DNA of 64,000 nucleotides, taken from positions 15,396 through 79,395 of the forward strand of contig JBKHAN010000002.1 in NCBI GenBank assembly GCA_046542845.1. The letters are read 5' to 3'. Of the stretch, positions 1 through 37,227 are shown one piece after another. The notes beneath the pieces were generated by a model. The model saw only the letters and a program-made list of their open reading frames with translations. It did no database searches and had not been told where the DNA came from. The position numbers and the translations under genes were made by a program. How positions within the stretch are numbered: position 1 is the stretch's first letter; every line of letters begins with the position of its first letter. This stretch comes from Spirochaetaceae bacterium. GTDB lineage: Bacteria; Spirochaetota; Spirochaetia; DSM-27196; SKKC01.

Positions 1-3000
1 CTCAGCCATACGAAACAACAGTAATTCGGACACCGTCAGCTCGTGTTGCGACAGTTCGACGCCGTAGTCGGCCATCATCCGATCGGCCATGTCCAGCCGG
101 GATCTGACCGCATTCACCGTCTCGGCCACTTGCGACTGCTGTGAGCGGACCCGCCCGTCCCGGTGCGACTCGTGCTCGAGGGCAAGCCCTGCGAACAGAC
201 GCGAAGCTCTCGCCGCAGGGTCCACGCCCCTGTCTCCAAGGCTCGCGAGATGAACTACGTCTGCGGTGGCATCGCGAACCCGCTCGGCCACGACTGTACC
301 GGTGGCGGTGCCGACCGAGAGCGTCACCGCACCCGACAGCACATCCGAGTACAGCCGCTCACCTGCCTCGCTGCCGAAACTGTAGAGGCTGCGAAGGGCA
401 GTACCGACGGAACGCGTCCCCTCGTAGTCCGGTGCAAAGACGGTCGTTCGGCTCAATGCGTGCGCTGCTATCTTCAACTGCTCGGCGTACACGGGAAGCC
501 CCGAAGCGAGGACCTGAAACCGGCGTGCGCTCGCGTCGATTCCACCGGAACCGAGCCGTATACCCGCCGCTGTCCCGCCGACATTCAGCTCTGCCAGCCC
601 GGCAGATGCGCCGGTCCGAAATCCCTGTATGCCCGCGATCTGCGTAAGATCGGCGAAATTCAGTACATTGAGCGTTGCGGACCCGGTGAGCCCGTGTTGC
701 AGCCCGAACTCCACGGCGCTGCCCACGCCCCCCGCGACCGCGCTCGCCGCCCCCCGATCAGCTGCGGAGAACCCGTTGAGGTCGCCGGTAAGAAGACTTC
801 CGCTGATGCGGCCCGCCGTACGGGCAATCGTGTCCGGCCCGGCGATGCCTCGCAGAAACCGTTCAGTCGAAAAACCGTTTGTCCCGAGGGCGTACACTGC
901 CGACCGCCCCGTGTTCGTGATCGCAAGTTCTCCAGCGGTGGACGCGAGCTCTCCGCCCCATCCCCGGCCGATTGCTCCTGTAATGCGGGATCCGGCAGAC
1001 CCTCCGAGGCTCCCGATTCCGACCGATGCAGCGTTCGTCAGGCTTCGAAGTGCGGCCTCTGAGGCGTCGGCCTCGCCGGACACAACATCCAGCGCAGAGG
1101 TGAGCGTGCTCGTACCAAGGCTCAGAGCGAGAGAGGCTCCTGCCGACATGAATCCACCGGCAACGCCGGCCCCGACGTGCAGAACATCGGAGATGGAAAA
1201 GGCGTTCTCGGCGTCCCAGAGACGGACGTTGTGGAAACCCTGTTGCAGTTCGCCATAACCGAGTCCCTGAAGCGATTGATAGTACATGAAGGGTCCATAC
1301 AGCGAGTGAAGCTCACCGCGACCGCGAAAGGCAATGTTCCCACGCCACCCGAGAGCCGTGTCGACACGGGGGAAAAGCTCCGGCGCATATCCGACGTGAG
1401 CGCCGAATGCACCGGGCATCAGCGTCGCCGCTTGATCGCGGTGCAGCACCTCCTCCTCATCGCCGTAGTCGATCAGCTCGGCGAGCCACCCGCGTTCGAG
1501 GCTCCGGCGAAGTACGGTGGCGGCATCCGGGTCGACGCGCCCCCCACCTGAACGCTCCGCGTCGCTGCCGAAGATCCGTTCGAGTTCGGTCGCGACCGAC
1601 TGCTGCGCCGCGGCGACCCGTTGTGAGACCGCAACGCTGCCTGAGGCGGCGAGACTGTGCAGGGACGTCCCTGAAGGCAGGTCGAAGCGGAAATCGCGAA
1701 AGGCTCTGTAGGGACGAATGCGGTGTCGCTCCCGCGTGCTCCCCTGCATCGTGTTTCCAACGAGCGTATCACGAACATATGAATCGGCCTCGCGGCGAAA
1801 TCCGGCTCGTGTAAAGGTGCGATGAATCGACTCTGCTACAGCGGCATTCGCTGAGTCGACCATGTGCATGGCTTCGTTTCGAATTCCATTCAGCTCTGAG
1901 ATAACATGTCCCGAGTGCACAAGGCTCAATCGCCGGGCAGTCTCGTCGTCTCCCCGGGACCGTGTCTCCTGCACGTGACGCAGTATCTCGACTTCAGATA
2001 CCGTCGCAAAGGGTCGCCCTGCGGCCACGCTCGTGCGATCGAACAAGTCCTCATGGTCACGGTTCGCGGCGGCATCGTGCAGGGAAAGGTTTTCGCGCGC
2101 AGCACGCAGCACACGTGAAAGTGTGTAAGCCGGCGAAAGATCGTCCACAAGTTCGTGCAACGCACCATCCCTGCTTTCCGTATGCGAACGAACCACGGGA
2201 GGCACGGCACGCGAGAGAATCTCGCGGACCAGGCGATCCGGTGATTCGTGGCCCTCGGCGTCGCGTGTCCATCCTCGTCGAAGCTCAAGCAGTTGCTCGT
2301 GACGCAACTCGTATTCGGCAGCTGTACGTTCGTAGGCGTGTGCTCGGTCCTGAAGCACGTCCGCGTAGCGCGAAACCAGTTCGTCGCCCGCGTCCTGCCA
2401 CGCCTGCCGCCCTCGGTCTTCGACTTCTTTGAGCTGGGCATGTCTCTGCCGTGCAGCGGCCGCGAGTCCGTCACGCATTAGATCCGTCCGCTCGCGAAAC
2501 GCCGCGCGGTCGTACTCGTCCCGCTCGTCGAGCCGTCGTCTGTAGTACTCGTGCAGAGTAGCGATCCGCTCCTCAGACAGAGACTGATGATGAAACGGCA
2601 GCTCCTGCGGGAACCGCTCGTACGCGTCGAGGAGGGCGCGCTTCAGACCTGCCGGGTCACGGTTCCCGGTGTCCTGTGCCGCCGCCTCAAGGAACGCGTC
2701 TTCGTCGCGTCGGAAGGCGAGCGATACGCGTTGCAGCTCTGAAAAAAGGTCGTGCGTAGCGTCGTTCAAACGCACACGGGGATTATCCGCTGTTCTTTCT
2801 ACGAGCGACACTGCGAAGGACTCTGCGCCTCCCCTGCTCCCGGGGGAAGACGCTATAATATGCGGGAGGTCGCTCAGCCCGCCGCGGGTCAGGGCTTCTC
2901 GCCGTGATTCAAGCTCTGCGTGACGCGAGGACAACGAGGCGTATGCACGAAACTCCGCTTCGATGTCGGCCACGCTCTCCCGGTATTCCTGCGCAAAGCC

Positions 3001-6000
3001 GAGTGCCGACAGATCGTCATGGAGCTCCTCATAACTGCCCGCGGCCCGACCCGCGGCCGCAGCGAGACTCAACTCAACAGTAGAACGAAGCATGAGCGTC
3101 GCCATGAGCGGTGGCGAGAAGAAGCTCGCAAGTCCCGAGAAGTAGAAACCCATTCCGATTGCGGTGAGCGTCCGGCTGCTGCGTCGACTCCGGCGGGCGA
3201 GCTCGCTGCTCCGGTCCATCGCGTGAGCAACCACGGTCGCGGGAGCCGACAGATACTCGATTTCCGACAGGAGATGATCGCCCTGTAAGGCCGATTCCTC
3301 GCGGTATGCGCGGTAGCTGCGGTACAGACTGCGAAGCTCCTGGTCCGCTTCGATGTGCGCGAGCGCTGCCTGCCCTTCTTCAAGGATGTACGCACCGAGA
3401 TCGGTGGGACTGCGAAAGGCGCCACCCCGCGTCAATGCATCGTGCAGAACAGGAGATACTATGCGCTCGGGTGTCATGAATCCGGACTCCGACCCGTTCC
3501 GGCCAGCTTCATAATCTCCGTAGGCTTCCGCATACATGGCCAGGCTGAAGCGATTCAGAAGCGTGCTTCCGTCCTCCTGAAGACGATCGGCAACCCGCAA
3601 AAACCAGTCGTGCCTGTCGCCGAGCGCGTCGCTCTCCGGACTGCGGAAGACGCCGTCGCGGGCGACCTGCATTTCCCGCGAGACGTCCTCGGTCTCCTCG
3701 TGTATGTCGCGGGTCAGTTCGTGAACCTCGCGCAGCAGATACTCCGCTTCAAGGCGTCCGGTGGCCAGGTCCGTGTATTCTGCGAAGCGCTCTGTGTCCC
3801 GCTCCACCACGTGCAGCTCCTCAAGCTCGTCGTGCGCCGCGGCGAGCGCTGACACCGCCTGATCGTAGCGCATCTCCACGTCCTCAGGGGTAAGCGAGAA
3901 ACTCCTCGCGTACACATCGACACTGCGCGCAATGGTGTACGCGTGCCGAGCCGCTTCTTCTTCGTCAATCGCATCCTCAAGGCTTGACTGTACCGTCTCG
4001 AGAACGCGGATCTCGTCCGAAAGCATCTCGAGCTGGCCTTCCCACTGTCGTACGATCGATGCCCGCTCGTCCCGGATCTGTTCAATCCGGTGGTTCATCT
4101 CGTGGAGCTCAGCGGCAGCCTCCTCCGGGTCATGCTGCAGCGCTTCCTGCAGCTGCGATCGTCGCACCATGAGGTTCGAGTAGAGACGGTCGTACTCTGA
4201 TCGGAGTTCGGCCTCCTCCGCGTAGCCCTCCGCCGACCGTTCCAATAGCTCTTCGGCAGCGGCGAACAGCTCCCCGGCGCTGCCGGCGGGCGTGGTCACG
4301 CCGTCGTAGGGCTGCAGTGCCGATACCATGCCGTTCAGCACCTCGCGTTCGCGGCGGTACACCCGGAGAGACTCGTCGGACCCGGCTGAAGCGGTTGACC
4401 CGGCCTCGAGCAGGGCCTGTGTCGTCCGGAGGTACTGCTCCTGAAGCACGGGTACGGAATCCATTTCAGGATCGAGTTCGTGATGCAGACCGGCGTCGAG
4501 GAACGCGTGCAGGTCGTCGCCGGCGGGAAGCGCAGACACACGTTCCCGGGCAGATTCGATGCGCGCGGGCGTCAGGACGTACTGTTCGAGATACTCGTAG
4601 CGCAGGGCTGCGTTTCGAGCAGAGGTCCGGGCGTTCGCGTCCCGCCAGCCGTCGATCGCGTGCGCGGACAGCTCACGCGCGACCGACGCCGAAGAAATCG
4701 CGTGTAAGATAGTCGGATCCTCTCGCTCCATGCGACTGAGTGCTTCCTCAAGCGCGTCGCCCGCCTCAGAGGATGCCGCGTCCTCCGGCAGGCCGTCGAG
4801 TAACTCGTCGATCCACGCTGCGACCCGCAGAACATCGCCGCTTCCGTATGCAGCATCCTCTGCCCCCGTCGCTCCGTGCAGCAGGATTCGCGCTTCGACC
4901 GACAGCTCAGTTTCGTCGGCCGCTGTGTCTTCGACGAAACGCGCGCGCTCAAGCTCGAGTGACAGCTGGGAGCGTATCCGCTGCAGTTCAAGACGTGCAA
5001 ATGTATCCGCGTTCGACTCCGGCTCCCCGGCATACGGGTCGAGCGCGTCGGCGAATACACTGACCTCAAGAATCGATGCACGGAGCATGTCCCGGAGTAC
5101 GCGCGCAGCGTGCGGGTAATCGGAAGCTGCCTCGGACAAGAGGTAGGTGGCCGAATCGGTCTGTGCTGAAGCGCGTATGCTTCTGAGAGCCGTTTCGGTA
5201 TCGCCGGCGGCGAAAGCCCGGGATGCGCTTTCAGCAGAATCGCCGCCAAGCTGGTCGAATACCGCTCGCGAATGCTCTTCGAGCGCTTCTTGCCGCTCGC
5301 CGAAATACAGGAACCGCTCGGCGTCGTGTTCCCGCTCCATGACACCGATCAGCACGTCGAGAAGCGCGTCGGCGTCATCGACAGCATCCCCGCCTCCGGT
5401 GAACCCGGTCCACGCTGCGACCGCATCAGCGGCAAGACGTTCGAGGAGTTCTTCCCCCGGTGCATCGAGGCGGCCGAGATACGCCCGCTGTCGCTCGTTC
5501 AACTCGGTAATTTCGAGGTCTGTTTCCCGAACAAGATCCGCGAACGATCGCTGCTCGGTCCTCAGTGACTCGATGCGAGCGGAAAGCTCGCGCATCTCCG
5601 CGCTGAGCTCGTGTACCGTCGCGGACGCGCGGGAAGCAGCCTCAGAGGCATACAGCAGGTTTTCTGCCGTCTCGGCAGCCGTTTCCCTGTTCGGGGACTC
5701 AGTACGTGCGTAGTCGCGGACGTGTTCCCAGACCGCGAGTTCCTCTTCGGCGCGGTCGATCGCGTATTCGGCGCGCGCGATTTCCCGGCTTTCGGGACCG
5801 TACCCCGCGTCGCCGTGGTATTCGTTCACAAAGCGGTCCATGGCATGCGCAGTGTCCGCTGCGATGCCTGCGTGGCGTTCTGCTTCCTGTTCCCAGTAGT
5901 CCCGCTCTGCGGCCGACTCGGGTCGGTCCAGAGACGTCCAGAGCTCCGCGGCGGTTCGTGCCGTTCGCTCGGCGGCCCGGCTTGAGCGGTAGAGGTTTAC

Positions 6001-6939
6001 GGCTGCCGAAAGCCGCTCATCCGCAGCGCTTCGGCGAGCCCGTATCGCTTGTGCCTCCGCGTCGGCTGCAACGGCGCGCTGCCGTTCGAAGGCCTCCCGC
6101 TGCTGTTCATGCCACATCGTTTCATTCGATACGAGCTCGCGAAACGACTCTTCCCAGGTCTGCCGCTGACCGGAGAGCCGGGAAAAGGCGTTCTGCCACG
6201 TCGCTCGCTCCGTCGAATACGCGGCATGCGTCGCTTCCTCCCACCGGAGACGTTCGGCGAGCAGGTCGGCTTCGGCTTCGTTCCACAGACCCTGAGCTTC
6301 GGCCACTGCCGCTGCGTAGCTTTCGTGGTCGGACGACCGCGGACCGTCCGGACGGCCGGTAACCGCAGGACGAACCGACGAAGAAGATTCGAAGAGCCAC
6401 GGCGCGTTGAGATACGATGCTGTCTCCAGGGGGGAGTTTCTCTCGGTAATGCGTCTGAGGCTTTCATGATCATATTTCCGTCTCGAGGTCACACGAGCCG
6501 ACTCAAGCTCTATGACGGTCTCAAGAGCGGGAACCTGACGACGGGCGTTGTCCCAGATCGCTTCGCGTTCTTCATGGTCTGAGTCTGCGTCGAGGCTGTC
6601 GACGCGACGCAGAGCGTCAAAGAGTCGCAGGCTTTCAAGTCCCGGCTCCCGCGTCGTTTCCCGGCTGTCACGCCAGCTGCGAAACGCTTCGTGCAGATAC
6701 GCGTCGAGATCCGCCTCCAGCTGTGCAGATGACTCCTGCGGCAGCCGGGAATGGCGGATGGCATAATCCCTTGCGGACGAGCCGTAGCTCCACCATTCTT
6801 CCTCGGTATTCGCGCGGGATGCGCGATCGAGGTACTCGTCAAGGTCCTGTCCGGGAATCGCATCGAGAGTCGTCGCGGCAAGCCCGAAAACAAGCGCCGC
6901 CGCGGCGTGTGAGAACCGTCTGCGTTCGGTCGTCGGCAT
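1..6939 (-). CDS. Giant hypothetical protein with a signal peptide, rich in Glu/Ala/Arg/Leu. At least 2,313 aa are visible and the C-terminus lies beyond base 1. It is not in the supplied ORF track.
   Basis: Manual minus-strand translation from ATG 6939-6937 stays open through every codon down to base 1. AAGGAGG lies at 6950-6944 and there is an in-frame TGA upstream at 7008-7006. The last visible residues are ...VELSQHELTVSELLLFRMAE at 60-1. The track lists no minus-strand ORF in this frame (end coordinate divisible by 3) anywhere in 1-6962, as expected for an ORF with no stop in the window. Every ORF the track does list there is a short Arg/Ser/Pro-rich off-frame product. The N-terminus MPTTERRRFSHAAAALVFGLAATTLDAIPGQD looks like a Sec signal. 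A hydrophobic stretch TLTAIGMGFYFSGLASFFSPPLMATLML lies at about 3171-3085, and a Gly/Ala/Ser-rich hydrophobic region at about 1185-640. Confidence 0.85.
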   Translation of the reverse strand, partial: MPTTERRRFSHAAAALVFGLAATTLDAIPGQDLDEYLDRASRANTEEEWWSYGSSARDYAIRHSRLPQESSAQLEADLDAYLHEAFRSWRDSRETTREPGLESLRLFDALRRVDSLDADSDHEEREAIWDNARRQVPALETVIELESARVTSRRKYDHESLRRITERNSPLETASYLNAPWLFESSSSVRPAVTGRPDGPRSSDHESYAAAVAEAQGLWNEAEADLLAERLRWEEATHAAYSTERATWQNAFSRLSGQRQTWEESFRELVSNETMWHEQQREAFERQRAVAADAEAQAIRARRSAADERLSAAVNLYRSSRAAERTARTAAELWTSLDRPESAAERDYWEQEAERHAGIAADTAHAMDRFVNEYHGDAGYGPESREIARAEYAIDRAEEELAVWEHVRDYARTESPNRETAAETAENLLYASEAASRASATVHELSAEMRELSARIESLRTEQRSFADLVRETDLEITELNERQRAYLGRLDAPGEELLERLAADAVAAWTGFTGGGDAVDDADALLDVLIGVMEREHDAERFLYFGERQEALEEHSRAVFDQLGGDSAESASRAFAAGDTETALRSIRASAQTDSATYLLSEAASDYPHAARVLRDMLRASILEVSVFADALDPYAGEPESNADTFARLELQRIRSQLSLELERARFVEDTAADETELSVEARILLHGATGAEDAAYGSGDVLRVAAWIDELLDGLPEDAASSEAGDALEEALSRMEREDPTILHAISSASVARELSAHAIDGWRDANARTSARNAALRYEYLEQYVLTPARIESARERVSALPAGDDLHAFLDAGLHHELDPEMDSVPVLQEQYLRTTQALLEAGSTASAGSDESLRVYRREREVLNGMVSALQPYDGVTTPAGSAGELFAAAEELLERSAEGYAEEAELRSEYDRLYSNLMVRRSQLQEALQHDPEEAAAELHEMNHRIEQIRDERASIVRQWEGQLEMLSDEIRVLETVQSSLEDAIDEEEAARHAYTIARSVDVYARSFSLTPEDVEMRYDQAVSALAAAHDELEELHVVERDTERFAEYTDLATGRLEAEYLLREVHELTRDIHEETEDVSREMQVARDGVFRSPESDALGDRHDWFLRVADRLQEDGSTLLNRFSLAMYAEAYGDYEAGRNGSESGFMTPERIVSPVLHDALTRGGAFRSPTDLGAYILEEGQAALAHIEADQELRSLYRSYRAYREESALQGDHLLSEIEYLSAPATVVAHAMDRSSELARRSRRSSRTLTAIGMGFYFSGLASFFSPPLMATLMLRSTVELSLAAAAGRAAGSYEELHDDLSALGFAQEYRESVADIEAEFRAYASLSSRHAELESRREALTRGGLSDLPHIIASSPGSRGGAESFAVSLVERTADNPRVRLNDATHDLFSELQRVSLAFRRDEDAFLEAAAQDTGNRDPAGLKRALLDAYERFPQELPFHHQSLSEERIATLHEYYRRRLDERDEYDRAAFRERTDLMRDGLAAAARQRHAQLKEVEDRGRQAWQDAGDELVSRYADVLQDRAHAYERTAAEYELRHEQLLELRRGWTRDAEGHESPDRLVREILSRAVPPVVRSHTESRDGALHELVDDLSPAYTLSRVLRAARENLSLHDAAANRDHEDLFDRTSVAAGRPFATVSEVEILRHVQETRSRGDDETARRLSLVHSGHVISELNGIRNEAMHMVDSANAAVAESIHRTFTRAGFRREADSYVRDTLVGNTMQGSTRERHRIRPYRAFRDFRFDLPSGTSLHSLAASGSVAVSQRVAAAQQSVATELERIFGSDAERSGGGRVDPDAATVLRRSLERGWLAELIDYGDEEEVLHRDQAATLMPGAFGAHVGYAPELFPRVDTALGWRGNIAFRGRGELHSLYGPFMYYQSLQGLGYGELQQGFHNVRLWDAENAFSISDVLHVGAGVAGGFMSAGASLALSLGTSTLTSALDVVSGEADASEAALRSLTNAASVGIGSLGGSAGSRITGAIGRGWGGELASTAGELAITNTGRSAVYALGTNGFSTERFLRGIAGPDTIARTAGRISGSLLTGDLNGFSAADRGAASAVAGGVGSAVEFGLQHGLTGSATLNVLNFADLTQIAGIQGFRTGASAGLAELNVGGTAAGIRLGSGGIDASARRFQVLASGLPVYAEQLKIAAHALSRTTVFAPDYEGTRSVGTALRSLYSFGSEAGERLYSDVLSGAVTLSVGTATGTVVAERVRDATADVVHLASLGDRGVDPAARASRLFAGLALEHESHRDGRVRSQQSQVAETVNAVRSRLDMADRMMADYGVELSQHELTVSELLLFRMAE

Positions 6940-6980
6940 GGCACCTCCTTCTGACAGTACATACACAGCGAACACTCGTT

Positions 6981-7009
6981 TTGATTGGCGGAAATTTCTT
7001 TTCAATCAA
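6981..7009. promoter_or_regulatory. Inverted repeat TTGATTG-N15-CAATCAA in the 108-bp divergent intergenic region; candidate operator
   Basis: TTGATTG at 6981-6987 and its exact reverse complement CAATCAA at 7003-7009. The repeat sits between the giant ORF start (6939) and the TolC-like start (7048), and the spacer is AT-rich. No regulator gene is visible in the window. Confidence 0.3.
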
Positions 7010-7047
7010 CCTTCGGATCAGCCGTGTACATAGCGTCGGAGGGTCCC

Positions 7048-8448
7048 ATGCACGTACGAACGATTCTTGCGCCGGGAGTGCTTCTCGCGAGCCTGTCGAC
7101 CGGACTCATTTTAAGCCCTGTCGAAGCGGCTCAAGCGGAAGCGCTCTCAAACGCCGTCATCATTACACGTACGGCCGACGCGCTTGAGCTTGCGCGTGAA
7201 CACGACATCGCGATCGAATACTACCGTAGCGAAGAAGCGTTCGTCCGGCGCAACCTCGATGACCTGACCCGCATACGCCTGCCTGAGATACAGGGTTCGA
7301 TCGCGAGCAGCAGGAACCGGGTGCAGAACCAGGCTGATGCACACAGCGTTGAACTGCAGGTCGGCGCATCACTGCCACTGTACGACGGGGGACGTCGTGA
7401 CGCTCAACGGAACGCGGTGAGCGCTGAACTTGGCCTGCGTGCCATCGGGCGGGAAGAACACGAGTCACAGCGAACGGCCTCGGTTGTGGAACTCCTCGCA
7501 AGCTATGAGTTTGCTGTGCAGGCGGCACGAATCGGGGAGCAGCACTACCGCCGGTCGCAGGTCGAACTCGACGCGCGTTTGCGCGATCACGAGCTGGGAC
7601 TGCTTACCGGCTACGAGCTTCAGGTCATGGAGCTGTCGGTAGAACGGGCGGCGATCGAAGTCGCGCAGCGCAGCAATACCGCAGAGGATCTTCACAGCAG
7701 ATTGAGGATCATGCTGGGTGTCGAAGAACCCGTCGCGCTTACGATACATCCGACGATCAGGCCCGGCAGCGATCCGCCTTCGATACGAAACGGTTTCGGG
7801 GTACTTCTTTCCGAAGCACTCGGATCCGATCCGACCATACAGCGTCTGCGCTTCGAGCGCGACAGAACCTCCGCGCTGCGCGACGCGATGCCTTCAGCGC
7901 TCACACCGGTCGTCGAGGGAACCGCCGGTGTGTCCATGAGAGGTGAGCCTCTGCCGCTTGCCTCGCCTGCGCTGCGCTTCGAGTTGCGCTTCTCGTGGCC
8001 GGGGCTCCGTAGCGGATATCTGGGATTCGGCGGTGGTCTCGCATTCGACACGGGGAACACCGCCTCGCGAAGGCTGAGCGTACAGACCGGCTCGTCAACG
8101 CGGGTTCAGTCCGAGGCTGCCCTGACACGTCGTCGCGTGGATGCCGGGCAGGCGCAGGAGGCGCTTGAGCGTGGTGAACACGAACTCGCGAGCTGGATAC
8201 GCAGAGCGCTGCGTGACTACACGCATCTGGGCACCGTTCGCGACACGGACCTGGAGGCGATTGCCCTTGCCGAGCTTGTCGTCGCGCGTACACGCCGCGA
8301 GGCCGAAGACGGACACAGTCGTTCGACCGCAGTTCTCGAAGCAGAATACCAGCACGCTCAGGCACAGCTGGCCGAACTTGAGACGACGTTTCAGATGGTA
8401 CGGCTGTACCAGCAGCTTCAGGTCCGCACGGGACTCGCACAGCCATGA
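7048..8448 (+). CDS. Outer membrane efflux protein (TolC/OEP family)
   Basis: Track ORF 6985-8448 (TTG start) trimmed to ATG 7048, with GGAGG at 7038-7042. Signal peptide MHVRTILAPGVLLASLSTGLILSPVEAAQA. OEP-like helical repeats with the LPLYDGGRRDAQRNA motif. The stop overlaps the next start (ATGA, 8445-8448). Confidence 0.8.
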   Translation: MHVRTILAPGVLLASLSTGLILSPVEAAQAEALSNAVIITRTADALELAREHDIAIEYYRSEEAFVRRNLDDLTRIRLPEIQGSIASSRNRVQNQADAHSVELQVGASLPLYDGGRRDAQRNAVSAELGLRAIGREEHESQRTASVVELLASYEFAVQAARIGEQHYRRSQVELDARLRDHELGLLTGYELQVMELSVERAAIEVAQRSNTAEDLHSRLRIMLGVEEPVALTIHPTIRPGSDPPSIRNGFGVLLSEALGSDPTIQRLRFERDRTSALRDAMPSALTPVVEGTAGVSMRGEPLPLASPALRFELRFSWPGLRSGYLGFGGGLAFDTGNTASRRLSVQTGSSTRVQSEAALTRRRVDAGQAQEALERGEHELASWIRRALRDYTHLGTVRDTDLEAIALAELVVARTRREAEDGHSRSTAVLEAEYQHAQAQLAELETTFQMVRLYQQLQVRTGLAQP

Positions 8449-9788
8449 AGCGTCTGGTTCTCGCCTCTGCGCTGCTCTCAGGCGCGTGTACCGCAACCCC
8501 GCACACGACCTCCGGGCCCGAGGAGATTCGACGCGTTCACGTCGGCGAACTGCGGCCGGAGCAGGTCGAGGAGACGATACCCGTTTTCGGGACGCTCGTG
8601 CCGCGGCAGGAAATACGTGTCAGCGCGCCGTCGTCCGGAACCGTCGCCGGGATCGAGGTCGAGGAGGGAGCCACGGCGAGTCGCGGCGTTCTTCTCGTAC
8701 GCATACAGAACGAACAGATTTCCGCTCGCAGGCGTCAGGTCTCCGGCGAGGTGTCTGCCGCCGCGCATGCCGTGCAGCTGGCGAAAGCGAGGATTGACGC
8801 GACGCGCAGGAACATCTTGCAGCGTGTCACACGGCTTGGAGGACTCGCGCACGCGACGGAGCTCGAACGAATCGAGTACGAGCGTGCGGCGGAGCGACTC
8901 CGGCAGGCGGACCAACGTCTGGAATCCGGTGGTATCTCGCCTGAAGAGCACGCGTCCTTCGCTCATGCTTCTTCCACCGCGGAGCTTCACCTGCGCATCG
9001 CGGAGAACGAGCAAGCGGTACTCGCCGCCGAGCTTGGTGCAGACACACAGGCGGGAGCGCTCGATGTCGCAAGCCGGATGTACGTCGAGGAAATTCTGTC
9101 GCACAACCTCCATATGGTACGTGCACAGCTCGCCTCCGAGGAAGCACGCCTTCGCGTAGCAGTCGCCGAGCAGGACGCAGTTGTCGATCTCCATGAATCG
9201 CTGTCGGTACGCGCCCCGGGCAATGGTCGCATAGCGCGCGTTCACGTCGAGTCCGGTGAACGGGTAGAACCGGGGACCCTGCTGCTCACGCTGCACGGCA
9301 CGTCTACTCCCGATCTGAATGTTCGGCTTCACGAGTCAGGCCTTCAACAGATTCGCATAGGTTCCAGGGTTGCGGTAACCATTCCGGCAGTCTCAGCGGA
9401 GCTGCGAAGCGCTGAAGTGCGACGCATCGGGGTGGCTGCTGATCCACGTTCGGGGTCGGTGTCCGTACTGATTCGGCTGCACGGGACCGCAGCCGAGTTG
9501 CGACCGGGTATGTACGCAGAAGCGAGCATACACGCGGAACGCGCGAGAAGCGGGATCCATATTCCGGCTTCAGCCATGCGCGAGCACGAAGCGGACCGAG
9601 CCTCGGTCTGGGTACTCGCGGCAGACCGTGTGTTTCCCCGGGAGATCTCAGTCTCTGAAGCGCGTAGGGATGGCAGCTATCGCCTCCTGAGCGGTCTCGA
9701 GGAAGGGGAGATCATAGTCCTGGAGAACCATTCCGGACTGCGCCCGGGAGAACACGTTCATGCGGTGTTCGAAACAGAGGAGGATTAA
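8445..9788 (+). CDS. Periplasmic adaptor (membrane fusion protein, HlyD/RND-MFP family); probable lipoprotein
   Basis: N-terminus MKRLVLASALLSGAC has a relaxed lipobox. Two lipoyl-like half motifs are present: IRVSAPSSGTVAGIEVEEGATASRGVLLVRI and LSVRAPGNGRIARVHVESGERVEPGTLLLTL. They flank a long helical hairpin, which is typical of MFPs. Confidence 0.8.
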   Translation: MKRLVLASALLSGACTATPHTTSGPEEIRRVHVGELRPEQVEETIPVFGTLVPRQEIRVSAPSSGTVAGIEVEEGATASRGVLLVRIQNEQISARRRQVSGEVSAAAHAVQLAKARIDATRRNILQRVTRLGGLAHATELERIEYERAAERLRQADQRLESGGISPEEHASFAHASSTAELHLRIAENEQAVLAAELGADTQAGALDVASRMYVEEILSHNLHMVRAQLASEEARLRVAVAEQDAVVDLHESLSVRAPGNGRIARVHVESGERVEPGTLLLTLHGTSTPDLNVRLHESGLQQIRIGSRVAVTIPAVSAELRSAEVRRIGVAADPRSGSVSVLIRLHGTAAELRPGMYAEASIHAERARSGIHIPASAMREHEADRASVWVLAADRVFPREISVSEARRDGSYRLLSGLEEGEIIVLENHSGLRPGEHVHAVFETEED

Positions 9789-9789
9789 C

Positions 9790-11190
9790 ATGAAGCCGTT
9801 CGGTGTCTGGATAGTACCGCTGTGCGCTTTCCTTACGAGTAGCTGTGCCGTCGTCGACTTTACTCAGCTTCACGTCGAGATCGACCCGGGAGAACGGTAC
9901 AGCGTTGTATCGCCGGACTCCGGTGTGTCACTGCGCTTCTCTCACGGCGTTGACCGCGACCAGGCCGAAGACCTCGTCCGCGTGGTCGCACGGAGCCGCA
10001 CCGTCGCGCACGCGATGACCTGGGAAGGAAGAACGCTTACGATTACACCCGTCGAGCCACCCGAGGCGGGGACGGTACACGAGCTTCAGATACAGGGAAT
10101 CGTTCGCGATACACGCGGACGAGCGCACACCGTCGCGGTTCTTCATCACCTGTTCTACGGTTCCGATGCACCGACGGCGCATCTTGTATCGAGCAACCCG
10201 GCCGACGGAGTTCTCGCCGGGAACGCTGGTCAGATAGGTCTCCAGTTCAGTATGGCCATGAACGGACCGAGCGTCGAAGAAGCGGTCCGTATAGTCCCCG
10301 CGGTGGACGTACGGTTTGACTGGAACGAAGCAGGCGACACCCTGAGTATTGTACCTCGCAACGCCTGGAACAGCGCACAGACCTACGACGTACTGATAGA
10401 ACCCACCGCGCGCAGTCGAGCCGGAACCGGACTCGCAGGGTCGATACGCCGTTATTTCCGCTACGATGTCTCAGCGGTCCCGCTCGAAGTGAGGGGCCAT
10501 CGCTTCGAAATGGCTGCCGGCGAGCCCGGACAGACCGTTCCGGTACCGGAGGGTCGTGACCCGGTCATTCTGACCTTTTCTGCTCCCGTGGGCCACATGG
10601 ATGTACAGCAAGCCGTCCGCGTTCGCCCCGCTTTGTCCCTGGAGACACGACAGCACTCTGCCGCCGAAGTGAGCCTGCATCCGCGCGATACCTACGAACC
10701 GGATACCGACTACCACATACTCATTCCTCCGGGGCTTGAGGACAACCGGGGAAACATACTGCGAGAAGCCTACTCGCTCTCGTTTCACACTCCCGATCGC
10801 AGAGCCGCTCTGGAGTCGGTTCGATTGATCTGGCCTGACGGTGACGTGCAGATTACAGATTTTGATGGTACCGGTGTTCACGCCGTCGCGCCGACCGGCC
10901 CTGACTACCTGCTTCATGCGGTCATGGCCTTCGATCGCGTTGTCGAAATCGGAACGCCCCGGCAGAACATGCTCGACACTCTCGGTGTGGAGCGGGTCGT
11001 CCCCGAGGGCGGGACTCCGATCGTGCTCGATCAGTTTGTCTGGACATCGGACGGTCGTGAACTGACCACGGTGTGGTCCGGGGTCACTCCGTCTGGTTTC
11101 ACCGACGCGCATGCCTTGTACCGACTGTCGCTACCCGATTCCCGGGAACGACAGGCCGTCGAGCTGACCCTTTCGCACGAGGCGCGCTGA
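9790..11190 (+). CDS. Lipoprotein with about three SbsA/Big_5-like Ig-fold domains
   Basis: Track ORF 9760 trimmed to ATG 9790, with GGAGGA upstream and only 1 nt after the MFP stop. Lipobox LTSSC. Recurrent Big_5-like pattern: SPDSGVSLRFSHGVDRDQAEDLVRVV..., NPADGVLAGNAGQIGLQFSMAMNGPSVEEAVRIVPA..., DPVILTFSAPVGHMDVQQAVRVRPA...DNRGNIL. Confidence 0.75.
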   Translation: MKPFGVWIVPLCAFLTSSCAVVDFTQLHVEIDPGERYSVVSPDSGVSLRFSHGVDRDQAEDLVRVVARSRTVAHAMTWEGRTLTITPVEPPEAGTVHELQIQGIVRDTRGRAHTVAVLHHLFYGSDAPTAHLVSSNPADGVLAGNAGQIGLQFSMAMNGPSVEEAVRIVPAVDVRFDWNEAGDTLSIVPRNAWNSAQTYDVLIEPTARSRAGTGLAGSIRRYFRYDVSAVPLEVRGHRFEMAAGEPGQTVPVPEGRDPVILTFSAPVGHMDVQQAVRVRPALSLETRQHSAAEVSLHPRDTYEPDTDYHILIPPGLEDNRGNILREAYSLSFHTPDRRAALESVRLIWPDGDVQITDFDGTGVHAVAPTGPDYLLHAVMAFDRVVEIGTPRQNMLDTLGVERVVPEGGTPIVLDQFVWTSDGRELTTVWSGVTPSGFTDAHALYRLSLPDSRERQAVELTLSHEAR

Positions 11191-12635
11191 TGAAGGTACC
11201 GAAGCGTCTGCTGTGGAACTTCGTGAGCGCCATGCTGCTCCAGGCGGTGTTCGGATGCAGGCTTTTTCCCATGGCCCCGCTCGAGGTTGTGCGCGTATGG
11301 CTCGACAGCCCACAGCGGATATCGGTCGAGTTTTCCGCGCCTCCCGACCCGGCACGTTTTGAAGCTGCGGTGCTCCTTCAAAAGAACGATCGGACTGTGC
11401 ACGGGCGCGTTTCTGTGGAAGGCGTCGCTGCACACTTTTACCCGGATGAGCCGGTCGACAGACGCCACCCGTACCGGTTCACCGTTTCGACTGTCGCCGA
11501 GGATATGCACGGAAACACGCTGCGACGACCCCTGGCGCACGAGTTCGGTCCACAGCCGGACGACTCGCCTCTTCGCGTCGCGGCAGCAGCGACGCGCCCG
11601 CACACCGTCACCCTTTCATTTTCTGAAGCCGTCGCGCCGGACGCGTTGTACGGACATCTGCAAATTGCACCCGACCGCCGGTACAGAATCGAGTTTGCAG
11701 ACAGAGGGCGAACGGCTCACGTTGTGTTTCTTTCACCGGATGCTCCGGAAAACGAACACAGCCTGCGTGTGATGCAGGGATTAACCGGTGCCCGGGGTGG
11801 TGTACTTCCGGCAGCATTCGAGTACCGCTCCCCTGAAATCGACGTCACCGAGTCGACACAGGAGGTCACGCTGCACTTCCATGAACCGGGCTTTGACACT
11901 ACATCGATCACCCCGGTAGCCGGGTATACGGAACCCGACCTCTTACCGACATACGAGCACTACGGAAGGTCTACGACCGTAGAAATCGAGTTCGCCGAAG
12001 CGGTACGCGCCGCAGACGTCGAGCAGGCGATACGGATATCTCCCGAGGTACCGGTGACCATTACCACGGGTGCGGGTACGCACGTGCACGAGGCTCGTGT
12101 GGACCTCGGGGGGCCACTCGACGCGGGAACCCTGTACCGGATCGAAATCGGGACGAGGGTGCGTGACCGCGAGGGCAGGTTCTTGCCGCACGTGCTGTTC
12201 GCCGGCATAAAGCCGCTTGAGCATGAGTTTCAGCCGCTTCAGGTGGAGGAGATTCGATTCGACGGCGAGGTGCTCGTCGACGGGGGAACGCTCGACCTCG
12301 GAGGGTTCGTTCCGCACACCGACATACAGTTCGCCGAGATCGAGATTGCGCTGGCCCATGGCGCAGGGGCGACGGTCAGTTCCGTCGATGTAGCTCGCGC
12401 CTTCCGCATATATGCCTGGGCCAACTCCGCGCGCTTCAGGCTCATTTCGCTTACCCGAACGACCGAGTCACAGACTGAAACCCGCTTTCGGCTCCGGCTC
12501 GAGGTCACAGATGAAGCAGGACGCTTCGGCATCGTCTCGGTTTATCTGCTTCAGGAGCTTACCGATTCTCTCGGAAACGAGCTGGAGCAGGACTGGCGCG
12601 TGGATCTGAACCAGATCGGAGGGCCGAAACCGTGA
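11190..12635 (+). CDS. Second lipoprotein with about three SbsA/Big_5-like Ig-fold domains
   Basis: Track ORF 11073 trimmed to ATG 11190, which shares one base with the upstream TGA (TGATG). Lipobox AVFGC. Big_5-like pattern: QRISVEFSAPPDPARFEAAVLL...EDMHGNTL, HTVTLSFSEAVAPDALYGHLQIAP, TTVEIEFAEAVRAADVEQAIRISP...RDREGRFL. Confidence 0.75.
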   Translation: MKVPKRLLWNFVSAMLLQAVFGCRLFPMAPLEVVRVWLDSPQRISVEFSAPPDPARFEAAVLLQKNDRTVHGRVSVEGVAAHFYPDEPVDRRHPYRFTVSTVAEDMHGNTLRRPLAHEFGPQPDDSPLRVAAAATRPHTVTLSFSEAVAPDALYGHLQIAPDRRYRIEFADRGRTAHVVFLSPDAPENEHSLRVMQGLTGARGGVLPAAFEYRSPEIDVTESTQEVTLHFHEPGFDTTSITPVAGYTEPDLLPTYEHYGRSTTVEIEFAEAVRAADVEQAIRISPEVPVTITTGAGTHVHEARVDLGGPLDAGTLYRIEIGTRVRDREGRFLPHVLFAGIKPLEHEFQPLQVEEIRFDGEVLVDGGTLDLGGFVPHTDIQFAEIEIALAHGAGATVSSVDVARAFRIYAWANSARFRLISLTRTTESQTETRFRLRLEVTDEAGRFGIVSVYLLQELTDSLGNELEQDWRVDLNQIGGPKP

Positions 12636-15556
12636 GGCGAATCATCGACTGGGCGCAGACGCACCCGGTGGCAGTATTGACCACGATGGTGATCGTTGTC
12701 CTCATCGCAATCGTGAACGCCGGCAGCATGCCGGTGACCTTCATGCCGGAGGTCGAGCGGCCGGTTTTCATTGTCCGCACCGAACTCCCCGGATTGCCGT
12801 CAGCTGAGGTGGTGGACCTTTTGACCCGCCCCGTCGAACGAGCGCTCTCGGGCATCGGCGGTGTCGCTGCGATCAGAAGTACAACCCGTGCGGGTGTTTC
12901 GGCGGTTGAAGTTCGGTTTCACGCAGGGGTGTCCCGCGAGCACGCACGAGCCGAAGTACGGCAGGTGGCCGACCGGGTCTACCCCGGTCTGCCGGATGCG
13001 GCGGATCGTCCCTCGGTCCTGTCGGTTCCCGTGTTTCGCGAACCGGCTGCGATTATCGCGGTGCTTCCCGGAAGGACTCGCCTCGGCGAGCTCCAGCGGC
13101 TCGCCGACCGGCAGCTCCGCTCACAGCTTCAGCAGCTCCCGGGGACCGGCACGATTACCGTAACAGGCGGCGAGCGCGCGGAAGTGCACGTACGCGTCGA
13201 TCCTCACCGCATAGCCGCGAAGGGTGTCGCCTTCGGGCATGTTTCCGGCGCGATCGAGACGTCGGTGTTTGAACACGCGGTCGGGACGATACAGATCGGT
13301 GAGCGCGAACTGAGCGTCGTGACGGACGCGGCTGTCGCGACGGTGGATGCGCTCGGCGGTTTACCCGTCGCCGGAGAACCGGGAGATCATCCTGTTCTTC
13401 TCCGTGATGTGGCGGTGATCGAAGCCGGTGTTTCCGAACAACAGTCGATGTTCAGCTACCAGGGAGAGGAAGCTGTCGGAATATCGATCTACGCGCGTCC
13501 GGGACACAGCCCTCCTGAGGTGGCACGACGCGTCGTTGCGTTCGTAAGTGCGTACAACGCCGGAAACACCGGCGATGTACGGCTGGTCATTGCTGCCGAC
13601 GGCGCGGAGCCCCTGAGAAACGCCGTGCAGGATATTGTCATATCGGGATTACTCGGAAGCGTATGCGCATTCTGCGTCATTATCATGTTTTCGCGCAGTC
13701 CGGTACTTGCGCTACCTGTGGTCTGCTCCATACCCGCGTCTCTTGCGCTTACGCTGTTGCTGCTGCAGCAGTCCGGGCTGGGCGTCAACCTGATGAGTCT
13801 CAGCGGGTTGCTCGTTGCCATCGGAATGATCGTTGACAACAGCATAGTCGTCGCGGAGAATCTCGCGCTCAAACCGGACAGGCCCGGTGAGGCAGTCCAT
13901 GAAGTTGCCGCCGCCGGTGTCTCGGGAACAGCAACAACAATCGTGGTGTTTATCCCACTCGCCGGCCTGCCCGGTCTGCTTGGAAGCATCTACCGCGATC
14001 TGGTGATCACAGTGGCTCTCGCACTGGTGTCAAGCTACATCGTGTCGCTGTTACTCGTTCCCACACTCAGGGCTCTCTTCCCTGCAGCCGCTCCTCCCGG
14101 AACGCGCGAAGACGCCTGGACATCGCGCTTCGCCGGCTCCCTCGTAAGCAGGCGCGGCACGACCGGGTTCGCATCGCTCGCGATGCTGGGGATTGCGATC
14201 GGGGGCAGCTTCCTGGTGTCATGCTCGCCGACAGAAGCGCTCGACTCGGGTACAATCTCCGTCCGAACGCGAACCGATGCGAACAGCCCCTTTGCATCTG
14301 TGCGCGCACAGGCTCTCGCGCTTGAAGCCCTCATTGCCGCTCACGAGTCGGTACGGGATGTACATTCGCTGATCGGCGGAGAGCCCGACGATCCGGTGTT
14401 CCTCAGCACTATAGATCTTGAACCGCGTGAGATCCGATCGACGGTACGCGTGCGCGAGGGCTCATCGGTCTTCGATGTGGTGTCCGACCTGGGTCGCGTC
14501 TTCGCGCGCGCCGGAATAGACGCGTCGATAACGGTCGCCCGGTCACCGCTCGCCCGCATCGTTCACGGCGAACTGAGCAGAGGGGAAGCAGTCGGCGGGG
14601 CAACCGTAGCCGAGGCAACTGAAGCCGCCCACACCATCCTCGCGCAGTACAATCCGGACATGCCCGGGCGCGCCCGCGCAGCGGCAATCGTACCATCGGC
14701 CTCCAGCACCAGCGTATACGTTCGCCCTCGTATGCCCACGCTTCAGCGTTACGGGATGAACGCAGCCGATGTCACGCGGCTTCTGTACGCGCAGACCACC
14801 GGGATCGTCACGGGAAGCATACATACCGCAGGTGTTCGAAACGATGTCCGGGTGTTCTTTGGTTCCGACGCCGAACGAAGCGCCGCTGAGGACCTTGTAC
14901 TCGTGAGCGGGACGGGGGACCTTACCTCGCTGTCGCAGATCGCTGATCTCGAGCGCGTCGATGCGCTATTGACCAGGATACGGGTAAACCAGACAGACAC
15001 GGTATACCTCAGTGCGGGCTTCGGACCTGAGGTTCCAGCGCCGTCGCTTTCGCGTTCTGATCTGTACCGGTTGTATCTGGTCTTCGCGGGTGCGGCTGCT
15101 ATCCTCTTTCTCGTGCTCGTGTTCCATTTCAACCAGATTACTCACGCACTCGCCATAATGTGCATAATCCCTGTCTCCTGGGCAGGAGCCCTGTGCGCAC
15201 TTACGGTCACGGGTCGGGTTCTGACGCTCGAGTCGGGGGTCGGTCTTCTTATACTGACCGGGTTGACCGTCAATCCCGGAATCATCCTTATCGAGACCTA
15301 TGAAGCCTTGCGTCGGAGGGGGCACATACTGCGGGATGCGATTCATGACGGCACGGCGCGCAGGCTGCGTCCCGTTCTCATGACGGGCATAACAACCGTC
15401 GCAGCGCTGGTCCCGCTTGCGATCGATCCCGGGCTCCAATCGATGCAGAGCAATACAGCCATTGTCGTTATAGGAGGGATCAGCGCCGGTACCATCGCAA
15501 CGCTGACCGTCATTCCGCGCCTCTACCTCCGTTCGTGCGGGAACGGCCTCTCGTGA
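12632..15556 (+). CDS. RND efflux permease (AcrB/AcrD/AcrF family), 974 aa
   Basis: GTG 12632 overlaps the upstream stop (GTGA), with GGAGGG at 12619-12624. Canonical RND landmarks are present. The N-terminus reads MRRIIDWAQTHPVAVLTTMVIVVLIAIV...PEVERPVFIVRTELPG, TM4 reads AIGMIVDNSIVVAEN, TM10 reads GLLILTGLTVNPGIILIE, and RRLRPVLMT is also found. Confidence 0.92.
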   Translation: MRRIIDWAQTHPVAVLTTMVIVVLIAIVNAGSMPVTFMPEVERPVFIVRTELPGLPSAEVVDLLTRPVERALSGIGGVAAIRSTTRAGVSAVEVRFHAGVSREHARAEVRQVADRVYPGLPDAADRPSVLSVPVFREPAAIIAVLPGRTRLGELQRLADRQLRSQLQQLPGTGTITVTGGERAEVHVRVDPHRIAAKGVAFGHVSGAIETSVFEHAVGTIQIGERELSVVTDAAVATVDALGGLPVAGEPGDHPVLLRDVAVIEAGVSEQQSMFSYQGEEAVGISIYARPGHSPPEVARRVVAFVSAYNAGNTGDVRLVIAADGAEPLRNAVQDIVISGLLGSVCAFCVIIMFSRSPVLALPVVCSIPASLALTLLLLQQSGLGVNLMSLSGLLVAIGMIVDNSIVVAENLALKPDRPGEAVHEVAAAGVSGTATTIVVFIPLAGLPGLLGSIYRDLVITVALALVSSYIVSLLLVPTLRALFPAAAPPGTREDAWTSRFAGSLVSRRGTTGFASLAMLGIAIGGSFLVSCSPTEALDSGTISVRTRTDANSPFASVRAQALALEALIAAHESVRDVHSLIGGEPDDPVFLSTIDLEPREIRSTVRVREGSSVFDVVSDLGRVFARAGIDASITVARSPLARIVHGELSRGEAVGGATVAEATEAAHTILAQYNPDMPGRARAAAIVPSASSTSVYVRPRMPTLQRYGMNAADVTRLLYAQTTGIVTGSIHTAGVRNDVRVFFGSDAERSAAEDLVLVSGTGDLTSLSQIADLERVDALLTRIRVNQTDTVYLSAGFGPEVPAPSLSRSDLYRLYLVFAGAAAILFLVLVFHFNQITHALAIMCIIPVSWAGALCALTVTGRVLTLESGVGLLILTGLTVNPGIILIETYEALRRRGHILRDAIHDGTARRLRPVLMTGITTVAALVPLAIDPGLQSMQSNTAIVVIGGISAGTIATLTVIPRLYLRSCGNGLS

Positions 15557-37156: not shown

Positions 37157-37227
37157 GTGCGTGGGTTCCTTATACACCTAAAATTCGCCGTCTCAAGTAC
37201 GACACCGATTATCCCTTGTAGAATGAA

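Follow-up and report, generated by a model that had tools for sequence, protein, structure and literature searches.

A family of giant exported spirochaete proteins with exchangeable C-terminal tails, frequently linked to an atypical RND-type operon

The first 7 kb of the DNA analysed here, a stretch of 64,000 nucleotides (nt) of contig JBKHAN010000002.1 from a Spirochaetaceae bacterium (hereafter the window, to which all coordinates refer), are taken up by one giant gene on the minus strand, whose codons run down from 6939 and which is cut by the edge of the window at base 1. The gene belongs to a large undescribed Spirochaetota-restricted family of exported proteins, in which the C-terminal tail is swapped between members, and it lies head to head with an operon for a divergent tripartite system of the resistance-nodulation-division (RND) type (Table 1). 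We describe below the gene, its family and its neighbours, and weigh the reading that we favour, a polymorphic toxin with a peptidase at its end, against its competitors.

That the frame is a real and very large gene is plain from the sequence. Machine translation of the minus strand of 1-6939 gives 2,313 codons without a stop, as an earlier note on this DNA had claimed; the remaining five frames across the same bases have 31-55 stops each and a longest open stretch of 305 codons. The start codon is the ATG at 6937-6939, an in-frame stop lies 25 codons further upstream, and the AAGGAGG reported 4 nt before the ATG was found where the note had seen it. GC-rich DNA does give long spurious open reading frames (ORFs), and several of 150-300 amino acids (aa) overlap the gene on other frames, but a chance frame can be dismissed: the probability of 2,313 stop-free codons at the local base composition is ~1.6e-29, GC at codon positions 1, 2 and 3 is coding-like (0.72, 0.50 and 0.69, respectively), the ribosome-binding site before the ATG is strong, and homologues of the same architecture in hundreds of genomes already refute the idea. 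The gene is missing from the program-made list of ORFs because the lister skips those that run off the end of the source, which agrees with the note's explanation that no stop falls inside the window. The C-terminus could be recovered from two database proteins. The complete product (P0001, annotated as 'MAG: hypothetical protein [Spirochaetaceae bacterium]', where MAG stands for metagenome-assembled genome) has 2,610 aa and matches the translation of the window at 100% identity; P0273, also of 2,610 aa and in the same 90%-identity cluster, shows 100% rounded identity in every region, and its contig (locus L081) holds the complete giant gene and the far side of it. The two proteins supply the 297 residues that follow base 1.

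Table 1. Features of the giant gene and of the divergent operon (window coordinates; residues are those of the giant protein)
Feature	Coordinates	Strand	Basis or remark
Giant gene, first 2,313 of 2,610 codons	1..6939	-	Final 297 codons and stop lie past base 1
C-domain, residues 1631-2313 in the window (to ~2345), ~700 aa	1..2049	-	Alignment A1; conserved columns across 156 members
HESHRDG, family hallmark HExxRxG (H2256, E2257, R2260, G2262)	154..174	-	Conserved end of the C-domain
Gly/Ala/Ser-rich hydrophobic section of the C-domain, residues 1913-2130	550..1203	-	P+G 17-18%, positive mean hydropathy
C-domain landmark GLAELNVGG	574-600	-	
C-domain landmark LWDAENAF	1198-1224	-	
C-domain landmark FGAHVGYAP	1381-1407	-	
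Presumed-helical linker, residues 1297-1630	2050..3051	-	Composition
Moderately hydrophobic segment with SPP turn, residues 1257-1296	3052..3171	-	Kyte-Doolittle peaks 1.2-1.3 (19-residue maximum 1.3)
Fast-evolving Glu/Ala/Arg/Leu-rich middle, residues 471-1256	3172..5529	-	Presumed helical from composition; length varies among members
N-domain, ~residues 30-470, ~440 aa	5530..6852	-	YLDRAS...W, then Trp-spaced helical motifs (W219..AE..L..R..W233 E...W248..AF..L...R..W262)
Signal peptide, residues 1-27 (MPTTERRRFSHAAAALVFGLAATTLDA)	6859..6939	-	Arg-rich n-region, 14-residue h-region, possible cleavage after LDA
Shine-Dalgarno AAGGAGG	6944..6950	-	4 nt 5' of ATG 6939; read from the sequence
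Divergent intergenic region, 108 bp	6940..7047	.	7-bp inverted repeat TTGATTG 6981-6987 / CAATCAA 7003-7009
Outer-membrane factor (TolC-like OEP), first operon gene	7048..8448	+	Pfam OEP E = 5e-7; no NCBIfam match
RND-type periplasmic adaptor (MFP), probable lipoprotein	8445..9788	+	HlyD_D23/HlyD_3; TIGR01730 RND_mfp 148.7 bits, cut-off 94.9
Two exported Big_5 (bacterial Ig-like) proteins	9760-11190, ~11073-12635	+	Pfam Big_5 E = 5e-24, 6e-18; second start uncertain
Two divergent RND permease paralogues	12632-15556 (974 aa), 15535-18162 (875 aa)	+	ACR_tran E = 3e-131, 1e-22

Judged by its sequence, the operon has its components in place and encodes a divergent subtype of RND tripartite system. 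The curated Pfam thresholds are passed for OEP, HlyD and ACR_tran, and the adaptor also passes TIGR01730, but both permeases fall far below the NCBIfam cut-off (344 and 62 bits vs 1,250), so that both are atypical and the second is extremely divergent. In gene content (OEP, MFP, two adjacent RND genes) the operon resembles pumps of the MdtABC-TolC type, from which it differs by these permease scores, by an OEP that no NCBIfam model matches, by the two Big_5 proteins inserted between adaptor and permeases, often with a tetratricopeptide-repeat (TPR) protein and a small protein in addition, and by its standing link to a giant gene. We know of no described RND system with two Big_5 proteins in that place. 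Transcription of the two units is divergent across 108 bp, as the earlier note had it, the OEP gene beginning at 7048. The inverted repeat that it saw between them does exist, but it is at chance level (a 7-bp repeat turns up in 11% of shuffles) and the pair is not conserved in the closest homologous loci, for which reasons it was rejected as an operator. The 108 bp contain no sigma-70-like match.

Domain layout of the giant protein and spread of its family

The protein is built from two conserved ends and a fast-evolving centre. The Sec-type signal peptide that had been proposed is probable from its n-region (RRR), its h-region (Kyte-Doolittle 1.48), the hydropathy peak at residues 9-31 and the possible LDA site, and the full-length family members likewise open with signal-like N-termini, their n-regions being rich in Lys. 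The string ERRRFSH, with RRRF inside it (residues 1-8, window 6918-6939), was tried as a Tat signal and rejected, since homologues in genomes of normal Lys content use Lys-rich Sec n-regions; the twin-arginine-like appearance is, from this comparison, probably a Lys-to-Arg replacement and not a sign of Tat targeting. The N-domain that follows is marked in the family by YLDRAD..W, by W..AE..L..R..WE and by E..W..AF..L...R..W, with regularly spaced Trp columns that are invariant in 16-45 members, and it is conserved with the homologues P0002 and P0003. Its profile matches the giant ORFs of 47 fetched loci and, in profile searches, N- and C-domains co-occur.

The middle, by its composition in 100-aa windows, answers to the earlier description of a long Glu/Ala/Arg/Leu-rich region, and self-BLAST finds no internal repeats. 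Over the whole part of the frame that lies in the window, A, R, E and L make up 10-15% each. Residues 481-1250 are only 37-38% identical to the closest homologues, vs 58-66% in the C-terminal parts, and residues 1251-1630 are ~39-40% identical. The hydrophobic segment of ~28 residues that had been placed at 3171-3085 is present (residues 1257-1296) but only moderately hydrophobic. Its counterparts in P0003 (residues 2468-2524, peak 2.09) and in P0013 are strongly hydrophobic and of double length; the segment occurs in many but not all members and is absent from those of Treponema. From its sequence it may form a membrane hairpin.

The Gly/Ala/Ser-rich hydrophobic region noted at 1185-640 corresponds, in composition and hydropathy, to residues 1913-2130 of the C-domain. 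AlphaFold2 places helices over most of this section, with a predicted local distance difference test (pLDDT) score below 50 only to ~residue 2000 and of 51-80 after it; the first ~190 residues of the underlying alignment (A4) are misaligned and the model is usable only from ~residue 1825 onwards. The helices are modelled as amphipathic or hydrophobic and may insert into a membrane. Towards its end the C-domain carries the hallmark of the family, HExxRxG, found as HExxRxG/HE[AS]xR[DN]G in 131 of 156 members; conservation of its H, E, R and G stands at 96-100% over ~140 aligned sequences, and in alignment A6 all four are invariant. In the giant protein it reads HESHRDG, which we considered as an HExxH zincin motif and rejected, the spacing being HExH and the second His being mostly Tyr across the family.

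Outside its own family the protein is an orphan. It has no match in Pfam, NCBIfam, PHROGs or the PDB sequences, so that no hit to a characterised family of large surface proteins was obtained, and PDB sequence searches with the protein and three profiles were equally without a match; Pfam and NCBIfam applied to the homologues found nothing beyond M23 or M15_4 in some relatives. The first homology search returned only two distant relatives, each of ~4,000 aa and 29% and 22% identical, which align at both ends (~residues 30-470 and 1631-2340). A profile of the C-domain, searched against 1.84 billion cluster representatives, extended the family to 842 representatives of 50%-identity clusters at E <= 1e-3 (348 at E <= 1e-30), mostly proteins of 2,000-4,200 aa. 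Entries that bear a name are called 'hypothetical protein' or 'M23 family metallopeptidase', and literature searches found no paper on the family.

A scan of 185,579 species genomes, anchored on the C-domain alignment A1 (so that the upstream flank often ends inside the gene), yielded 76 loci, 72 of which are labelled as spirochaetes. The carriers are Spirochaetaceae and Spirochaetales MAGs, Treponema including T. socranskii, Sediminispirochaeta, Alkalispirochaeta and Thalassospirochaeta; the relatives nearest to the giant protein, with 59-62% identity over the C-domain, are from MAGs, and we read their isolate names as pointing to soda-lake samples. Three loci (L066, L069 and L077) lie in MAGs labelled Planctomycetota, Clostridia and Bacteroidales, respectively, and the first of them has an upstream operon of the spirochaete type as well; binning errors are the probable cause, horizontal transfer being the alternative. 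Habitats of the family, whose divergent members number in the hundreds, include soda-lake mats, termite guts and, for T. socranskii, the human mouth. The gene described here, 7.8 kb long, is among the largest in these genomes, yet it is 'hypothetical' everywhere and no Pfam or NCBIfam profile covers it; the present alignments would allow new families to be set up, one each for the N-domain, the C-domain and at least two types of tail.

Co-occurrence with the operon, followed with tblastn among other methods, is conserved across spirochaetes and is the strongest clue to function. At least 25 of the fetched loci have operon components beside the giant gene, with protein identities of 22-100%. 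The whole set is found divergently upstream of both distant homologues and of the gene in L081, as in the window, and by tblastn it lies next to the giant gene in many of the fetched loci, often with the TPR protein and the small protein in between; the Big_5 pair recurs in L001, L002, L079, L080 and L081. In Treponema from the termite gut the giant gene closes the operon, with an overlap of 8 or 4 bp between it and the stop of the second RND gene, and in T. socranskii the RND genes likewise precede it. The link is thus frequent and ancient, and it is not obligatory in cis. A subfamily of shorter members (~2,100-2,400 aa; L012, L015-L018, L024, L056 and L071) has both N- and C-domains without an adjacent RND operon, and the N-domain profile matches 10 of the 11 loci checked that lack one. 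In one of them, L017, genes for an ABC transporter stand upstream and one for an ankyrin-repeat lipoprotein downstream.

The C-terminal tail and its exchange

The earlier note recognised no catalytic or adhesin motif in the part it could see. For adhesins this holds, Pfam giving no match, but a predicted catalytic domain begins just past the edge of the window: a papain-like cysteine peptidase at residues ~2340-2590, within a tail that in the family mostly measures 350-450 aa when counted from HExxRxG. C2426 is the sole Cys in 2,610 residues. G2425-C2426, H2530, N2557-P2558 and D2580 are invariant in 18 aligned tails that are only 20-25% identical to the query, and they follow the Cys, His, Asn/Asp order of clan CA peptidases. 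AlphaFold2 models the tail with a pLDDT of 86-96, and in the model, numbered from residue 2225, Cys202 opens a helix (202-215), His306 opens a strand (306-318) and Asn333 comes directly after an adjacent strand (323-332). The top compact Foldseek matches in the PDB have the papain fold, namely UfSP (probability 1.00, E = 0.013), calpain-3, cathepsin K and UCHL5; USP28 also appears, with a poor superposition only. The whole 980-residue model gave no Foldseek match below E = 0.75 because its low-confidence helices dominated. On this modelling the tail is predicted to be a papain-like cysteine peptidase of a new sequence family.

At the same position some relatives carry Peptidase_M23 or Peptidase_M15_4 instead. 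Both M23 and M15 enzymes are peptidoglycan peptidases, and so, by analogy, cell-wall peptide is suggested as the common target of the tails. For the giant protein itself we infer both the peptidase activity and its target.

Tails are exchanged at a sharp boundary. The loci of two T. socranskii subspecies (L043 and L048) are 70-85% identical through the C-domain, and from ~90 residues past HExxRxG their identity falls to 38% and then to 20%. The reverse is seen in L039/L048 and in L043/L069, which are 20-40% identical overall and 50-67% in the tail. The exchange point lies ~90-100 residues after the motif, and 35 loci fall into 14 tail clusters. In relatives the ORF that comes next as a rule overlaps the stop of the giant gene or directly adjoins it (~-18 to +23 nt) and encodes a signal-peptide or lipoprotein product, with ankyrin, leucine-rich repeat (LRR), SH3_3, FGE-sulfatase-like or discoidin-like domains or of unknown type; the similarity of these downstream genes tracks that of the tails and not that of the cores.

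The third element is the presence of orphan modules. Full C-terminal modules, one or two per locus, follow the main gene in L022, L060 and L069; each begins inside the C-domain and has its own HExxRxG, its own tail and then its own lipoprotein gene. L033 and L048 retain short fragments of the tails of other alleles together with a second immunity-like gene, which brings the loci with orphan modules or fragments to 5 of the 36 that have enough downstream sequence. In the review of Zhang et al. (2012; PMC3482391), tail exchange, a coupled downstream gene and orphan modules are what defines polymorphic toxins at the level of the genome. No recognised trafficking domain (TPS, PAAR, LXG, WXG, SpvB, MuF and similar) was found in Pfam and NCBIfam searches, the only candidates being the signal peptide and the novel N-domain.

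Some single loci deserve mention. In the Alkalispirochaeta sp. chromosome OZ271854.1 (L022), two orphan modules lie at ~9533-18040 of the locus, as stop-free stretches of 903 and 680 aa with the motifs HEAHRNG and HEAFRDG and a signal-peptide or lipoprotein gene after each. L043 and L048 belong to T. socranskii subsp. paredis and subsp. socranskii, respectively, a human oral treponeme, and have different tail alleles; in subsp. socranskii a short piece of the paredis-type tail persists as an orphan, along with a second lipoprotein gene whose homologue is the partner gene in paredis. These two subspecies offer cultured strains in which the question of toxin and immunity can be taken up. Throughout the soda-lake clade the position of the immunity-like lipoproteins of relatives is taken, 12-74 nt downstream of the giant gene, by an exported and membrane-anchored SelR/MsrB of 223 aa (L081, 17907-18578; L004 and L005, ~12973-13644), which may reflect inherited gene order or a functional link, such as the protection of the single, putatively catalytic Cys or of Met residues.

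Possible functions of the giant protein

The gene, its family, the domain layout, the synteny, the swapping of tails and the orphan modules are matters of observation. The best reading of them, as far as sequence goes, is that the giant gene is a new architectural variant of the polymorphic toxins, with a peptidase as warhead and coupled to an atypical RND-type apparatus, and we lean, by a modest degree, towards the view that the family works in this manner. Sec would export the 2,610-residue protein, which would act wholly outside the cytoplasm. The Trp-rich N-domain could then serve as a trafficking or docking module, the Glu/Ala/Arg/Leu-rich middle as a rod or spacer, and the C-domain, with its Gly-rich hydrophobic helices and HExxRxG, as a platform for delivery and for recombination, while the last ~270 residues would be the exchangeable warhead, here a putative papain-like cysteine peptidase (C2426, H2530 and N2557/D2580). 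Since relatives have M23 or M15 warheads, the warhead would likely act on neighbouring cells, either on the peptide of their peptidoglycan or on some other envelope substrate. The OEP, the MFP, the two Big_5 proteins and the two RND proteins would form a dedicated apparatus that exports, anchors or presents the giant protein after Sec; the RND system could also anchor it or merely co-function with it, instead of transporting it. Both the antibacterial use and the role of the RND system are things that we infer. Only tentatively can one go further and see in the operon not a drug pump but a two-step delivery machine for giant toxins rich in helix-favouring residues, driven by the proton motive force (Sec first, then RND, adaptor and OEP), a Spirochaetota-specific secretion pathway with the Trp-rich N-domain as its targeting module; we regard this extension as doubtful.

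The likeness to CdiA, Rhs and MafB-type polymorphic toxins lies in the conserved N-terminal part, the long centre and the variable C-terminal enzymes, and further in the sharp breakpoint after a motif, the co-varying downstream gene and the orphan modules. Papain-like toxin domains are also known as warheads of such toxins (Zhang et al., 2012; PMC3482391). Unlike them, the giant family shows no TPS, RHS, PAAR, LXG, WXG, filamentous-haemagglutinin or HINT domain in Pfam, its body is rich in helix-favouring residues and not built of beta-repeats, the window locus is without a recognisable immunity gene, and the apparatus would be the RND/MFP/OEP/Big_5 operon, RND and TolC having 0 occurrences in the review of Zhang et al. 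(2012; PMC3482391).

[quoted passage not shown] These have warheads of papain fold or of M23 or M15 type, and partner genes with a signal peptide or lipoprotein signal, as the giant family has; the giant family differs in having no link to a T6SS, in the fusion of the warhead to a delivery protein of 2,000-4,000 aa, and in a tail that is an orphan at the sequence level.

Several points weigh against a toxin delivered by an RND machine. RND pumps are not known to move proteins, and the operon is missing from the upstream flank in ~10 loci where this flank spans 3 kb or more. The peptidase assignment itself has weak Foldseek scores behind it (E >= 0.013, TM-scores <= 0.32), and no sequence profile in the Pfam, NCBIfam and PDB profile searches ties the tail to a known peptidase family. 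In the clade of the window the tail, far from varying, is the best conserved part, 64-66% identical vs 33-40% in the N-terminal and middle parts and 41-49% in the operon proteins; L081 shows neither an orphan module nor a recognisable immunity gene, its SelR/MsrB gene following 74 nt after the stop and convergent glycogen-metabolism genes coming next. This picture would suit a conserved enzyme with the producer's own wall as substrate no less than a toxin. One may speculate that an immunity gene would be superfluous if the toxin were aimed at a peptidoglycan chemotype that the producer itself lacks.

It is on these points that the main competitor draws, a housekeeping envelope protein, that is, a giant periplasmic scaffold anchored in the inner membrane, whose peptidase would remodel the cell's own peptidoglycan and which would co-operate with, or clear space for, either the trans-envelope RND complex or some other periplasmic structure specific to spirochaetes. 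Besides the conserved tail and the missing immunity candidate, this explanation can call on the conserved synteny with apparently vertical inheritance across deep spirochaete lineages, on the fact that replacement by M23 or M15 keeps the same chemistry, cleavage of peptidoglycan peptides, and on a protein that behaves as extracytoplasmic throughout and has a possible membrane hairpin. What one would not expect of it are sharp tail breakpoints between subspecies, cassettes of tail and downstream gene that otherwise distant genes share, and arrays of orphan modules with lipoprotein genes of their own, nor is the extreme divergence of the family (842 clusters at 50% identity) typical of such a role, and we consider it plausible but less likely than the toxin, and the best placed of the alternatives.

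Less probable still is a surface fibril or adhesin, exported in a type-I-like manner through the OEP channel and equipped with a peptidase tail for self-processing or release. Type I secretion does handle giant adhesins and RTX proteins, LapA with LapBCE being an example, and there too a very large protein is encoded beside an outer-membrane factor, an adaptor and an inner-membrane transporter; the long rod-like region of variable length would suit a fibril. Type I systems, however, are energised by an ABC transporter and the giant locus by an RND pair, with two Big_5 proteins in the operon, and, unlike type I substrates, the giant protein has an N-terminal Sec signal and, by Pfam, no RTX or C-terminal type I signal. 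The absence of Ig-like or adhesin repeats (Pfam) and of internal repeats speaks in the same direction. Some large toxins do have papain-like domains that serve as releasing peptidases (Zhang et al., 2012; PMC3482391), but M23 and M15 tails belong to peptidoglycan peptidases and not to self-processing domains, which leaves the adhesin improbable.

A remnant of a mobile element, either phage tape-measure-like or a conjugation-type polyvalent protein, is suggested by the architecture, which resembles that of T5 Pb2-type tape-measure proteins (a long, presumably helical region, hydrophobic segments and a muralytic C-terminal cell-wall peptidase), but it is close to refuted by the signal peptide, by neighbours that are chromosomal housekeeping and RND genes with no phage context, and by the lack of any PHROG match for three members, of any relative in 2.9 million viral contigs and of any tblastn match among 50,697 records of phages and 72,556 of plasmids.

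No weapon of the contact-dependent or bacteriocin type is known to have been characterised from spirochaetes. The 2012 survey does list them among the lineages with predicted polymorphic-toxin and immunity domains (PMC3482391). If the polymorphic-toxin reading is correct, spirochaetes would gain an interbacterial weapon whose delivery scaffold and gene neighbourhood are unlike those of any described system; if the RND apparatus handles the giant protein, RND/TolC-like assemblies would have a wider role, and bacteria a new route of secretion.

Lysine avoidance in exported proteins

The earlier count of about four Lys codons in the visible part of the gene was correct: there are exactly 4 (residues 155, 1433, 1504 and 2156), and 5 in all 2,610 residues. 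The scarcity was considered as a special property of the giant protein and this was rejected, as it is common to all exported or membrane proteins of the window. Eleven of these (7048-18162, 22717-24363, 28389-29678, 34277-37177 and 37341-38660) contain 0.0-1.0% Lys (median 0.2) vs 1.4-7.1% (median 2.9) in 18 cytoplasmic proteins (Mann-Whitney p = 9e-6); Arg is raised instead, and GC at third codon positions is unchanged. The contrast holds even within one protein: of the 174 residues in the periplasmic part of the chemoreceptor encoded at 20844-22748, 1 is Lys, vs 10 of the 407 in its cytoplasmic part. Since Lys scarcity marks the compartment, all 2,610 residues of the giant protein behave as extracytoplasmic, and Lys content can be used in this genome as a free marker of topology.

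The soda-lake relatives of the giant protein are equally poor in Lys, and the Treponema members have 5-7%. As Allen et al. (2022; PMC9110029) showed, Sec substrates of neutrophiles favour Lys over Arg, and those of Bacillus halodurans, an alkaliphile, have the opposite preference. By analogy, the genome of the window looks like an extreme case of this reversal; the avoidance of Lys is probably an alkaliphile trait and points to a soda-lake or otherwise alkaline origin.

Three of the exported or membrane proteins are free of Lys altogether. At 34277-37177, on the minus strand, lies the gene of a very acidic Lys-free exported protein of 966 aa (D+E ~20%) with FlgD_ig, Big_13 and C-terminal OmpA domains and a weak CHU_C-like match, and the next gene, at 37341-38660 on the plus strand, encodes a further Lys-free protein of the OmpA family. 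The exported protein encoded at 22717-24363 on the minus strand combines a TIG and a transglutaminase-core domain and has zero Lys in 548 residues.

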